From the IMG/VR virus record IMGVR_UViG_3300021406_000010, positions 64,001 to 128,000 of that record: a stretch of 64,000 nt of DNA; one strand, 5' to 3'. Of this stretch, positions 27,755-59,906 are shown piece by piece. The stretch is from a virus. The notes beneath the pieces were generated by a model that was given only the letters and a program-made list of their open reading frames with translations, was not told the origin of the DNA and searched no databases. Position 1 is the stretch's first letter; each line of letters begins with the position of its first letter. A program made the position numbers and the translations under genes.

Positions 27755-27767
27755 CGGGTCCTCCTGA

Positions 27768-27956
27768 TAACGGCCCGCTGTACGTCCCGGGCTCTATCGC
27801 CGGGACCGTCACCAGCGGCCCCGGGACGACGGGGCCGCGAGGGGCGGGGGTGCTGCACTGCACCCTACCGGGGAACACCAGGATCCGCTGGGCTTGCGTG
27901 AAGCAGGCAAGGACGGGACTGGCGGCGAGGGCCGCCGACGCCAGCTGGACGGCCAT
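27768..27956 (-). CDS. Small hypothetical protein whose credible coding region ends at a TTA codon
   Basis: TGATG overlap with the upstream gene; after TTA (27770-27768) the frame runs out of phase through the DivIVA-like gene. Confidence 0.4.
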
Positions 27957-28213
27957 CAGGACGTCATCAGGCTCCCCGTCGCGACCTGCGCGGCGGTCAG
28001 CGTGTACGTCAGGTCGGCGAGGCCGTAGTCAGTGCTGCCTGACGGGACGTTCGCCAGTCCCCGGGCCACCTGGCACTGAGCGTGGCTCCCGAGCAGGTCG
28101 AACCCGGCCATGGTGACGGTGAGGGGGCCGATCACGACGGTGGAGCCGTTGGCGGTCAGGGTGGAGGAGGACGCGTTGCCGGCGTAGCTGAGGTTAGTCG
28201 GGGACTCGGCCAT
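27956..28213 (-). CDS. Hypothetical beta-rich protein
   Basis: GGAAGGAG RBS, 85 aa. Confidence 0.6.
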   Translation of the reverse strand: MAESPTNLSYAGNASSSTLTANGSTVVIGPLTVTMAGFDLLGSHAQCQVARGLANVPSGSTDYGLADLTYTLTAAQVATGSLMTS

Positions 28214-28227
28214 TCAGGCTCCTTCCG

Positions 28228-28488
28228 TCACGCCTTCCGGGGCAGGCCGTAGCGCTCCCTCACCGCCTGGTACTCCGGGGTGCCGATATACCAGGCGACC
28301 ACCTCACTGGCCACGTCTCCCTCGTCGCGCCCGGTCAGGAGGATGTAGGCCTGCTTCAGCCCGTCGTACCTGCCCACAGCCTGAGCGCTCCTGTCGGGGT
28401 CGGATCCGTATGGCTCGGCGTCCATAGCCGCGTAGGCGGCCTTCAGCTCCCGCATCAGTGCCACGGCTGCGCTCTTCCTCGTCCTCAT
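28228..28488 (-). CDS. Hypothetical protein, leaderless
   Basis: Promoter motif with TATCGT 6 nt before the ATG. Confidence 0.65.
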   Translation of the reverse strand: MRTRKSAAVALMRELKAAYAAMDAEPYGSDPDRSAQAVGRYDGLKQAYILLTGRDEGDVASEVVAWYIGTPEYQAVRERYGLPRKA

Positions 28489-28529
28489 GGCAGCACGATA
28501 TCAAGAAAGCCTGTATTGAGATAGCCTGG

Positions 28530-29354
28530 TCAAGAGACGGGGTCCGCGATCGGGACCGCGACCACGTCGTGCGAGCCGCAGGTGCGGCACTGGAAGACCG
28601 CTCCGCTGCCGTGGTTCCCCTGCCGGAGCTGCAGGTTCGACAGGCTGTTGTCGTGCTTCTTCCTGTTGTCCTTGTGGTGAACCGTTTCGTAGTCAGTAAG
28701 CGGGCGGCCAAGGGCCTTGGCCATCACCAGGCGGTGCTGCATCACGTAGCCGTTGACGCCCGGCGGGCACAGCAGGGCTTCCTCCGGCGAGGGCATGACC
28801 ATGGTGTATCCCTCGACGATCCTGATCCCTCCCTTCCAGTTGTGGTGGTCCTCCCTGGCCCTGTACCGGTTTGACCTGGTGTCCACCCCGGCTCGCCGCA
28901 GGGTCCCCCTGATCGTGATCGGGTTACCGCCGTGCTTCCTGGCTAGTTCGGCTAGGGAGGTCCCGGCCTTGAACTCCTCTGCCAAGACAGCAGTCTGCTC
29001 CTCGGTAAAGCGGTGGTGCTTGCCTCCCAGGCGGGGCGTGATCCCGGCCTCGCGCAGCACCAGGGAGACGGTGGTGTCCCTGGCGTGGACCAGGGCGGCG
29101 GTGTTCTTGACGCTAGTGCCCTCGTGCCAGAGCCGGATGATCTCGGCCCGGTTCTCCGGGGTGTCGTGCCAGTTGTACTCGGCACTGGGACGGCCCCGGC
29201 GTTCGATTCCCAGGCGCTTGAGGGCTGCGATGACCGGCACGGGAGAGGTCCCGTAAATGTCGGCGACCTGCTGAAGCGTCTTGCCGGCCTGATAGTGGCA
29301 GGCAATCTCGGCGTCCTGCTCGGGTGTGAAGAGTGGTTTTTTCCCTCTTGGCAT
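28530..29354 (-). mobile_element. HNH endonuclease with three N-terminal HTH repeats
   Basis: HHNWKGG, GYVMQHRLVM, ETVHHKDNRKKHDNSLSNL; lower-GC upstream flank. Confidence 0.88.
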
Positions 29355-29485
29355 GCCTTAACTATATTAAGACGACACTATCGCTGTCAGGGAGAATCGC
29401 CTCGAACTTACAGCTTTAACTGCCCCTGACGGATCGCCCGAACTAGGACAATCACATCCGAAGCGTATGTAGTCGACTATACTCT

Positions 29486-57229: not shown

Positions 57230-58128
57230 TCACGTCCACTCGGGATGGGGCTCCGGGGCCGGCGGCGGCGGCCGGGACGGCTCGCGGATCGTCACCCGGC
57301 TGCTGGCGGCCACCAGTGACTCGAGCGCGGCCATGTCGGAGGCGAACGAGGCGGGGGTGGCCCTCTCCAGCCGCAGGGCGCTCCCGGCGGGCGGCGTCCC
57401 GTCCCCGGGGGCGGGAGCTTCCTCGAAGTGACCGGGCCACGCTTCCAGGGCGCTGACCAGGCCGGAGGCGACCGCTGCGGACAGGATGAGGTCCTGGCGG
57501 TCCTGCAGGCGGCGCCCCTCGTCGAGCCAGTGCAGGACCTCGGTGGCGGCCAGGCAGGCGCGGGGGAGGTGCCGTCCCGACAGCTGCCCGCGCCTTTCCG
57601 CCAGCCGCAGCTGCTGCTCTACCCAGGGATCGCAGTGCCCGCCGGGGCTGGTGCTTTTCCCAGGGCCTCGATCACCTCCCGCTGGCGGACCTCCAGTGCC
57701 AGGTAGGCGGTGAAGATCGCGTCAATCGTCGGCGGGAACCACCGGCGGGCGTAGTTGTACCGCTCGTAGGCCCACTTGCGCTCCTGCCCGGGGTGCTCGC
57801 CGAGCGGCACCGGCATCGGCTGCCCGTCGATGGCGGTGACGCACATCCCGGCCATCGCCGTGGCGTAGGACTTGGCGCCGCCCAGGCCGCCCTCGTGGTC
57901 GCGGACCAGCGACGCGACGAGCAGCTCCTCGTCGGTGGTGAGGGTCTTCAGCTCGATCCGGTGGCCGCACCAGTCGAACCACGCGGTCAGGTACCCGAGC
58001 CGCAGCAGGCCGGTCAGGTCGTCGCGCCACGAGCCGGTGTCCGGCTCGTCGAGGTGCAGGTCGAGGACATCCTCCGGCGGCGGGACGGCAGACGCCGCCG
58101 GGGATTCCTCGTCGGGGAACGCGGTCAC
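57230..58128 (-). CDS. Tail assembly chaperone, -1 frameshift-extended form
   Basis: G-GGA-AAA slippery site at 57661-57655; the -1 frame is open to TGA at 57230 (..DPWVEQQLRLAERRG..). Confidence 0.85.
57619..58128 (-). CDS. Tail assembly chaperone, short form
   Basis: 169 aa, between the tube and tape measure genes. Confidence 0.8.
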   Translation of the reverse strand: MTAFPDEESPAASAVPPPEDVLDLHLDEPDTGSWRDDLTGLLRLGYLTAWFDWCGHRIELKTLTTDEELLVASLVRDHEGGLGGAKSYATAMAGMCVTAIDGQPMPVPLGEHPGQERKWAYERYNYARRWFPPTIDAIFTAYLALEVRQREVIEALGKAPAPAGTAIPG

Positions 58129-58304
58129 GCCGGGCTGCCTCCCCAGCGCAGCTGCATGGCCTGGCTGCGCATCCGGAGGTTCGGGTCCTCCTGCTCGAGG
58201 GAGACGCTGGCGGAGGTCGCGCCGGGCACGGTGACCGTCACCTCCGCCGAGCCGGTGGCAGTGCCGTCCGGCCCGGTGACGGTGGCGGTGATGGTGACGA
58301 TCAC
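58125..58304 (-). CDS. Small beta-rich protein
   Basis: GTGA overlaps on both sides; Thr/Val-rich. Confidence 0.5.
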   Translation of the reverse strand: MIVTITATVTGPDGTATGSAEVTVTVPGATSASVSLEQEDPNLRMRSQAMQLRWGGSPA

Positions 58305-58612
58305 GCCGGCAGCGCGGGGATGACGCCGGTGAAGACGGCGGTGCCCGCGACGTTGGACTGCTGGGTGTAGGCGGTGCTGACCGAGTCGGACACCGCGACG
58401 GTGAGCGGGAGGGCGGGAGCCGCGCCGGCGGTGTAGGTGGCGCTGCCGGTGGACGCGGTGCCGTCGAGGGCGGTGACGCTCGCGGTGACGGTGACGGTGA
58501 CGCCCGGGTTGGCGGGGTCGAGGTACTCGACGGTGACGGTGATCGGGTCGCCGACGGCGTAGGCGGCCTTGTCGGTGGCGACGGTGACGGCGGGCGGCAC
58601 GGGGGTGGTCAA
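58301..58612 (-). CDS. Ig-like virion decoration protein
   Basis: VATDKAAYAVGDPITVTVEY; GGAGG RBS, TTG start. Confidence 0.65.
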   Translation of the reverse strand: MTTPVPPAVTVATDKAAYAVGDPITVTVEYLDPANPGVTVTVTASVTALDGTASTGSATYTAGAAPALPLTVAVSDSVSTAYTQQSNVAGTAVFTGVIPALPA

Positions 58613-58679
58613 GGTTCCTCCACGGGCGGGGCGGGCAAGGGGTCTCACTTCTTCCGGGGGGCATCGCTATGCTCGCTGC

Positions 58680-58970
58680 ATGACCGTTCGCGCGCCCTTC
58701 ACCCCGGCCCAGGTCGCCAGCCTCAACGGCTACCAGGCGTCCGCTTCCTTCCACGGGTTCACCTGCGGGGATGATGCCTGTCCCGGCGCCGATGGCGAGC
58801 GTGTCGCCCTGCGCGCGCAGGAGGACGGCTGGCACTGCCCCGCGTGCCCGTACACGCAGGACTGGGCGCATGACTTCATGGCCGACGGGTCGTGGCAGCG
58901 GCTCTCCGGCGTTACCGTCACCGTCGGCGGCGTGCGGGTGAGGGGCGAGATCGGGGAGATCACGGGCTAG
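58680..58970 (+). CDS. Conserved small Zn-binding protein, leaderless
   Basis: HGFTC..C...GWHCPACPYTQDWAH; TATGCT 6 nt before the ATG. Confidence 0.65.
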   Translation: MTVRAPFTPAQVASLNGYQASASFHGFTCGDDACPGADGERVALRAQEDGWHCPACPYTQDWAHDFMADGSWQRLSGVTVTVGGVRVRGEIGEITG

Positions 58971-59365
58971 GCTGGGCGCAGGATTCCCGCAGGGGGACGC
59001 TCAGGAGATGGGATGGCCGGCGCAGCACGGAGCCGGCGGGCGCCAGCGGCCCGGAAGGCTGGCCCCTGTCCCCCATCGCAACAGCGAGGCCCGCGCCCTA
59101 TGTCAAGGGGCACGGGCCTCGCGCGTCCGCTAGGATGGCCGCCATGCTGCGGTGAGTACCGGGTGACGCCGGGAGGGGCCAGCAGACAGCGCGGGAGCCG
59201 CCGCAGGAGCCCTGGTACCGGGGAGACGCCGCGAGCACAGCGCGCCGGGCTATGCCCGCCCGCCACCACCGTATGCCGGCCTCCGGCCGGCCTGGGGGCC
59301 GTCTGCCTCCGGACGAGACTGGCGGTCGCCCGGACTATCCCCCTCGCCAGGACATCCTTGCCGGA

Positions 59366-59906
59366 TTATGTCGGATTGAACTGGTTCGAGTTCAAGGGCA
59401 CGTAGTGGGTATACGCGAACGTGATTCCTTTTGTTACAGCCAGTGCGCCTACGGTGACTGTCTCCCCGTCGTTGATGTCCACTACCGTGACGTTCTGGTA
59501 GACCTTGCCGCGCCAGGACCCGGGAGTGCCCTCCGTGCCGGGCGGCTTGATCACCATCGAGGCCGTCACGTAGTTCGGGTCCTTCTGCAGCGCCAGGAAG
59601 ATGTCGACCATGTTCCAGGTCCCGGCCAGGCCGGCCAGCTGCCACCAGACGGGCTGGTTCCACAGCTCGCGGATGGTCACCATGACGGTGCCGCCGGAGA
59701 TCACCCTGGACGTGGCGATCTCCACCGGGAAGCTGGAGCCGATCGGCTGGATGAATTGATAAGGCTGGCCGGCATCCGAGAAGGCCCTCTGGCCTGAGTC
59801 CTCGCATTAACCAGCCTTCACAGAAGGCAATTGGTGCTTTGTTATATGACAACACAGTGTAGCCTGAACCGACTACCCTGGCCTTCGTGGCGGCGATGGT
59901 GACCAC
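59366..59906 (-). CDS. Tail tube protein interrupted by a 7-nt insert TTAATGC (59810-59804)
   Basis: ARVVGSGYT..PIAFCEGW | EDSGQRAFSDAGQPYQFIQPIGSSFPVEIATSR; lies downstream of the sheath gene. Confidence 0.78.

Follow-up and report, generated by a model that had tools for sequence, protein, structure and literature searches.

Programmed bypassing of messenger RNA by bacterial ribosomes has been published for T4 gene 60 and its relatives; a partly supported case has also been made for three Streptomyces terminase genes (PMC10732093). In the latter, carried by phage phiHau3 and by the prophages StrepC.1 and S. catenulae, coding gaps of 7-10 nt that open with UUA interrupt the large terminase gene; they account for three of 100 terminase genes, with reporter support and no regulation shown (PMC10732093), and that account traces the proposal of UUA bypass in terminase to Smith et al. 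(2013). In the T4 MobA element the nuclease is accompanied by a divergent replacement sequence (homR) and by the bypass insert, which blocks self-nicking (bioRxiv 10.1101/2022.08.31.505936). Many inserts, the byps, are described in several essential genes of Magnusiomyces capitatus mitochondria in two reports (PMC5009743, PMC10732093), and in Cluster O mycobacteriophages an HNH gene stands before the tape-measure gene, which probably starts at ACG (PMC4351075). Here we describe two short, TTA-led coding gaps in tail genes of a soil actinomycete phage, which are probably scars left by homing endonucleases and tolerated through ribosomal hopping. They lie in a stretch of 64,000 nt (hereafter the window) that corresponds to bases 64,001-128,000 of virus record IMGVR_UViG_3300021406_000010 (166,488 bp, 71.4% GC). 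The genome of the window is called G000; positions prefixed G are genome coordinates and all others are window positions. Eleven closer relatives (G001-G011), whole or nearly whole, and about 100 further tube loci were compared with it.

The first gap interrupts the tail tube gene on the minus strand, which matches gp112, the tail tube protein of Rhodococcus phage E3, and homologues in Bxz1-like mycobacteriophages at 36-40%. The tail sheath gene lies upstream of the cassette (60821..62356, minus; phrog_2839, E 6e-49), and between sheath and tube stands an intact antisense HNH endonuclease gene of 287 amino acids (59961..60824, plus; PHROG HNH families, E 7e-15 to 5e-17). The same HNH protein occurs on nine contigs, and the gene is missing from 54 relatives in which the sheath is directly coupled to the tube. 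The tube is preceded by a very strong Shine-Dalgarno (SD) sequence (59901..59914, minus; -26.0 kcal/mol), the top anti-SD match of the genome scan. Its codons 1-29 (59811..59897, minus) are recoded, with a G+C content at third codon positions (GC3) of 0.65, are collinear with gap-free tubes and end in the take-off codon TGG; their first codon is probably the near-cognate start ATC, because the ATG of the homologues sits at that position. There follows a 7-nt coding gap, TTAATGC (59804..59810, minus), which ends in the landing codon TGC, matched to TGG at two of three bases, and the gene resumes at GAG and runs from codon 30 to its end (59366..59803, minus). A model of a gap-free homologue, of low confidence (pLDDT 60), suggests a contractile tube/Hcp-like fold, in which the pre-gap piece would supply two predicted strands; a sequence search of solved structures returned no match to the tube. 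A second patch of low GC3 (0.55) near the 3' end of the tube gene (59366-59480) may be the tract of another element.

The second gap lies in a conserved gene that follows the gene in the tape-measure position and is itself placed in the tail module like E3 gp117. Codons 1-30 (55124..55213, minus) are again recoded and end in the take-off codon CTC; the gap consists of the two nucleotides TT (55122..55123, minus), so that TTA at 55123-55121 occupies the A site, and the landing codon CTT matches CTC at two of three bases in a normal wobble pair. The remainder of the gene (54606..55121, minus) belongs to phrog_2786, and its orthologue in G005 carries an 11-nt TTA-led gap at the same codon. A strong SD (55218..55231, minus; -22.1 kcal/mol) lies ahead of the gene, and directly upstream is a remnant that looks like the C-terminus of an HNH element (55216..55317, minus). 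This remnant, whose HNH identity is read from a motif and not from a profile match, shares 52% identity across 24 query residues (E 0.01) with the one upstream of the gapped G005 orthologue, which retains an HNH-like tail (Cys-x2-Cys-His) together with a stranded copy of the former 5' end.

The initial annotation had listed in-frame TTA codons at 27770-, 30339+, 30355-, 55123- and 59810- as the only ones in credible genes of the window and had taken all five as candidate bypass sites. All five triplets are in place, the spacings to a similar downstream codon (16, 14, 8, 2 and 7 nt) are as described, and a codon-model census found no further in-frame TTA in the credible genes of the window. The rest of the genome holds eight more (G41514+, 45824-, 45830-, 47663-, 47681-, 47988-, 134032- and 141395-), each at or near a gene end, and across about 328,000 aligned codons in 12 genomes TTA was never seen as leucine within homology-supported cores, against about four occurrences expected from base composition. 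The five sites divide into two classes, however: internal gaps at 59810 and 55123, and terminal TTAs at 27770, 30339 and 30355. A hop to a stop is available at 9.7% of unrelated TTA triplets, so a nearby matching codon is in itself weak evidence, and at both internal gaps the landing codon matches at two of three bases. What sets these two apart is the comparison with homologues. When gap lengths from 0 to 60 nt were scored for each candidate, removal of exactly 7 nt from the tube and 2 nt from the 55213 gene restored the homologue alignment, by large margins over other lengths, and both gaps recur in independent assemblies of the same phage, the 7-nt gap in L252 and L253 and the 2-nt gap in L250 and L251. 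Hopping led by UUA in two tail genes is the best reading, with strong comparative evidence behind it; the extension to all five TTAs is contradicted by homologues at 27770, and 30339 and 30355 belong to one terminal overlap.

Such gaps are widespread among the relatives. Fifteen of 83 distinct tube genes are gapped, in 19 events at seven positions (codons 11, 13, 14, 26, 29, 45 and 46) and with lengths of 2-16 nt; 18 of these open with an in-frame TTA and one with TAG. Outside the tube, TTA-led gaps interrupt a baseplate wedge gene (G002), a zinc-finger gene (G008, two gaps) and the G005 orthologue of the 55213 gene. In G000 itself, beyond the window, a phrog_2791 gene (G000:135603-135610, minus) has an 8-nt AGA-led gap flanked by TGG codons immediately before its last codon, with a recoded 3' tract; nine relatives read through to a Trp-Tyr-stop ending, the same 392-aa overrun appears in other assemblies, and orthologues in G002 and G006 have HNH-like genes, read from sequence, downstream. 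The single TAG case, at codon 11 of the L216 tube, is an in-frame 6-nt gap with an HNH gene upstream; no other TAG read-through was seen in that locus, and the site is a candidate natural stop-hop. Taken as 20 distinct gaps, of which genomes carry one to four, the first codon is TTA in 18, TAG in one and AGA in one. At every one of the 20 the landing codon can re-pair the take-off tRNA on at least two of three bases, and in 12 on all three; random flank triplets gave a mean of 5.3, and none of 20,000 draws reached 20. Take-off codons are often rare synonyms (TCT, TGT and TTT at 3-4%, CAA and CTA at about 1%). Gap-free tubes have no extra residues at the gap positions, and among five codon-29 alleles pN/pS (the nonsynonymous to synonymous ratio) is 0.21 before and 0.20 after the gap. 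The internal gaps are therefore real, exact, recurrent and TTA-led, they can be re-paired by the take-off tRNA, they lie in genes under purifying selection on both sides, and they are tied to insertions.

All 13 gapped tubes that could be tested have an insert of 275-2150 bp after the sheath, with an HNH gene, an HNH-like gene or a remnant in ten, whereas none of 54 tubes directly coupled to the sheath is gapped (Fisher 1e-8, uncorrected for relatedness); 11 tubes have an insert and no gap. The HNH subfamily follows the position of the gap: neighbours of codon-29 gaps are 67-79% identical to one another, those at codon 11 form a second group and those at codon 45 a third. The wedge gene has an HNH gene upstream in the gapped G002 orthologue only, and G005 and G008 retain the old 5' end, stranded ahead of the new one. 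GC3 over the first 45 codons is 0.65 in gapped against 0.88 in gap-free genes and equal in later codons, while the SD averages -21.1 kcal/mol against -10.6, and -13.2 where an HNH gene is present and the gap is absent; both features are specific to the gapped orthologue. On a sheath-plus-tube tree gap state changes at least six times and sister pairs differ, as expected for homing. Within 16 antisense HNH genes none of 265 leucines is encoded by TTA, which we do not count as strong evidence. A second HNH gene in the window, with helix-turn-helix (HTH) domains (28530-29354), has no associated gap that we could find. Across the genomes compared, three of them partial, no gene occurs in every gapped genome while being missing from every gap-free one.

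We therefore think that both internal gaps are probably protection scars of homing endonucleases, tolerated because ribosomes would hop at a slow UUA. On this explanation an HNH element would insert at the 5' end of a conserved virion gene, or immediately ahead of it, and bring a replacement 5' end in which a strong ribosome-binding site precedes synonymously recoded codons and a TTA-led insert of 2-16 nt; by analogy with T4 MobA, this insert presumably spoils the target of the element's own nuclease. A ribosome would then stall with UUA, presumably slow in the host, in its A site; the peptidyl-tRNA would leave a weakly paired take-off codon, slide forward and re-pair with the similar codon that closes the gap, and decoding would resume after the landing site, so that the protein is restored in translation. 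A strong SD may compensate for lost yield. The HNH gene could later decay, as appears to have happened at 55216-55317, with the gap remaining, and a sensitivity to bldA tRNA, if there is one, would be a by-product that may have been put to use later. The 2-nt gaps, the in-frame gaps that hold TAG and the lack of an Rfam intron argue against splicing and simple one-base shifts, and a forward peptidyl-tRNA hop at a slow A-site codon would account for all of the gaps.

Several observations weigh against this explanation. The shortage of TTA exceeds the GC bias only modestly. Seven HNH-bearing relatives are gap-free, so that a gap is not required for the element, and the inserts ahead of three gapped tubes contain no recognisable HNH gene. 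Both landings in the window are imperfect, and the sites of four relatives have a first- or second-position mismatch. Hairpins occur at some sites (tube codons 11 and 13), internal SD pairing at the two window sites is weak (-4.0 and -8.2 kcal/mol), and neither a stem-loop nor an internal SD is common to the sites, though the tube is needed in many copies. Gaps at the same site may share one origin followed by spread through homing, in which case the events are not all independent. Transfer RNA content cuts both ways: G001-G008 each encode 33-41 tRNA genes, none for UUA, which favours hopping at UUA, but the same clusters also lack readers for CUA and GUA. A cluster of this kind is missing from the genome of the window. 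In G005 and in G009 one tRNA has the amber anticodon CUA.

The reading resembles known systems without coinciding with any. As in phiHau3, an in-frame UUA stands at the 5' end of an insert that is absent from homologues (here at 59810 and 55123; not at 27770, 30339 or 30355), landing codons match at two of three bases, with re-pairing of the take-off tRNA at all 20 distinct gaps among the relatives, the product is collinear with gap-free relatives and the gene is an essential late one. In phiHau3, however, the target is terminase, with an ordinary SD, no adjoining HNH gene and a Streptomyces host, whereas here tail tube, wedge and two other genes are affected, with 2-16 nt and up to four gaps per genome, beside HNH genes and strong SDs and in a host known to the actinomycete level only. 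As in T4 gene 60 and MobA, the gap moves with an HNH element that stands beside the gapped gene (as a remnant only at 55216-55317), host-gene sequence is divergently replaced in the manner of homR (5' tracts of low GC3, with old 5' ends left stranded), a stop or a presumably hungry codon follows take-off and the gap outlives the nuclease. Gene 60 differs in its gap of 20-50 nt, its single topoisomerase target, its conserved take-off hairpin, its mini-SD and its nascent-peptide signal; in place of these and of the MobA family we find gaps of 2-16 nt in virion genes, five targets, HNH genes of at least three subfamilies, a UUA trigger and no common hairpin. The byps share an avoided codon in the A site and a matched landing, but belong to mitochondrial ribosomes with relaxed framing, whereas here the ribosomes are bacterial and each genome has one to four gaps. 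Cluster O phages likewise have an HNH gene before a virion gene, and a near-cognate codon takes the place of the usual ATG (ATC here; ACG and TTG in relatives), with no coding gap reported. In its mode of action the system would resemble T4 gene 60 and phiHau3 bypassing, without strictly belonging to either.

In the literature searched, of which coverage was incomplete, we found no account of short gaps that open with UUA, are linked to HNH genes and occur in several virion genes. This phage clade offers a natural allelic series of 20 distinct gaps, spread over 12 positions in five genes and differing in gap length (2-16 nt), landing mismatch and SD strength; compared with the gap-free alleles of sister phages, it could show what a hop demands of the ribosome. 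A tie to homing endonucleases would also give UUA bypassing an origin other than developmental sensing, and essential tail genes of these phages come out truncated under standard annotation.

The initial annotation had interpreted the UUA codons as a phage-wide developmental sensor, by which virions form when bldA tRNA is scarce and are shut down when it is abundant. Nearly all gaps do open with TTA and not with a stop, they outlast the decay of HNH genes, the large tRNA arrays of relatives omit a UUA reader (along with those for CUA and GUA), the phage has genes typical of mycelial hosts (BldC-like, TraB-like and DivIVA-like), and the phiHau3 gaps share the anatomy (PMC10732093). We nevertheless consider a sensor improbable: the gaps are strictly tied to insertions, close sisters are gap-free, the affected genes differ from phage to phage and some gaps are led by TAG or AGA. 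Host evidence, moreover, reaches the level of actinomycetes and not Streptomyces, and the developmental role of bldA may be limited to the Streptomycineae (PMC4255298). An ordinary +1 or -1 frameshift at or near UUA, which would add one to three residues without a hop, is more doubtful again. A -1 shift after UUA would restore the frame across 2-nt gaps, and 4- and 7-nt gaps are equivalent to +1, but in the window tube a +1 shift from TGG runs into TAA, gaps of 15 and 6 nt keep the frame and contain TAG, all three frames are represented among gap lengths, the landing match is far above chance and gap-free tubes lack the additional residues that a shift would leave.

Removal of the gap at the RNA level, by a micro-intron or polymerase skipping, or the production of two separate proteins, is very unlikely. 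Short direct repeats flank some gaps and HNH genes are often carried in introns; against this, some gaps are only 2 nt long, no splice motif is shared and TTA follows the codon boundary in frame every time. The window contains no Rfam intron match, and no group I or II ribozyme core was found. As for two proteins, no SD precedes the internal GTG at 59725 of the tube, and invariant tube residues lie between codons 30 and 57. That the gaps are assembly errors or mark dead genes is scarcely credible. The record does hold one private break, a 1-nt deletion near 41870 that splits a 1475-aa tail gene; it is the only non-TTA break in the window, is absent from the independent assembly L250 and is either a mistake in this record or a mutation private to it. 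The gaps, by comparison, are identical in independent assemblies, 14 other phage sequences have different TTA-led gaps and purifying selection acts on both sides.

The terminal TTAs tell a different story. A possible hop in the lysin had been proposed at 30355-, but the GH25 endolysin (30356..31360, minus) has 335 codons to the Trp at which its homologues end, including a sister protein of 333 aa that is at least 90% identical, and the TTA stands exactly where these stop. Facing it on the plus strand is a zinc-ribbon gene of 68 aa (30135..30338), from a family mostly of 62-76 aa, and the two genes meet tail to tail in a 17-bp overlap (30339..30355) in which the TTA of each strand is the complement of the out-of-frame TAA of the other. 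TTA and TAA are 14 nt apart on both strands. Being complements in this way, the sites at 30339+ and 30355- are not independent, and one fixed 1-nt deletion in the convergent overlap explains them as well as two hops do. In a sister strain only 34 nt separate the lysin from the next gene, which marks the zinc-ribbon gene as an insertion; in-frame searches gave no sign that it is an HNH remnant. At 27770 a 62-codon gene (27768..27956, minus) has TTA where homologues have TGA, and its frame continues for 195 more codons. The CCG..CCG hop suggested there is rejected, as it would give a fusion that no relative has with the DivIVA-like gene, a separate gene in relatives with its own SD (27760-27765) and a TTG start (27083..27765, minus). 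Convergent with the DivIVA-like gene is an FtsK/TraB-like gene (24927-27086), about 30% identical to actinomycete plasmid proteins.

These sites and the eight outside the window could instead reflect UUA acting as a conditional stop, whether the ribosome hops to a stop codon, a release factor misreads UUA or drop-off occurs, a possibility that we regard as real but on balance doubtful. Among seven G000 genes that overrun the homologous stop by more than 20 codons, three have a TTA within three codons of it; 27770, 45824 and 134032 also show this, as does the sheath of G003. A hop to a stop is possible at four of ten terminal TTAs, well above the background rate given earlier (p about 0.01, post hoc). 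On the other side, the flanks of the lysin and 27770 sites are not recoded (GC3 0.95-1.0), some terminal TTAs sit in recurring DNA motifs, in the lysin and the zinc-ribbon gene the TTA is the complement of a TAA stop, and no phage release factor, Pth, Pth2 or tmRNA was found. The alternative is chance, through stop loss and AT-rich gene ends, with one 1-nt deletion at 30339/30355. Were both classes of site functional, near-signal-free UUA hopping in this clade might have let several unrelated homing endonucleases scar essential genes without introns, and the accumulated gaps and terminal UUAs might tie virion assembly and lysis to a scarce tRNA-Leu(UAA), as a multi-gene switch built from the scars of selfish elements; we hold this to be an unlikely though not negligible prospect, and the same history could also lie behind the phiHau3 case.

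Other gene ends show similar arrangements. A BldC-like MerR gene (G000:141395-141590), with an HTH domain 94-98% identical to many actinomycete proteins, has a frame that runs about 96 codons past the end seen in homologues, and TTA stands where the stop is expected; its orthologues in G001, G006 and G008 also have TTA there, within a recurring DNA motif. At G003:109264, in a single assembly, TTA replaces the sheath stop, overlaps a +1 TAA and lies 5 nt before the tube SD. Gene pairs at G000:44364-46292, 47649-48400 and 133589-134389 seem fused or overrunning, with TTA near the stop of their homologues. With respect to the host, no prophage relative was found in GTDB, and the markers available (flavohaemoglobin, TraB-like and BldC-like) resolve to actinomycetes only; the flavohaemoglobin-like gene (G000:149328-150476) is 35-43% identical to actinomycete genes.

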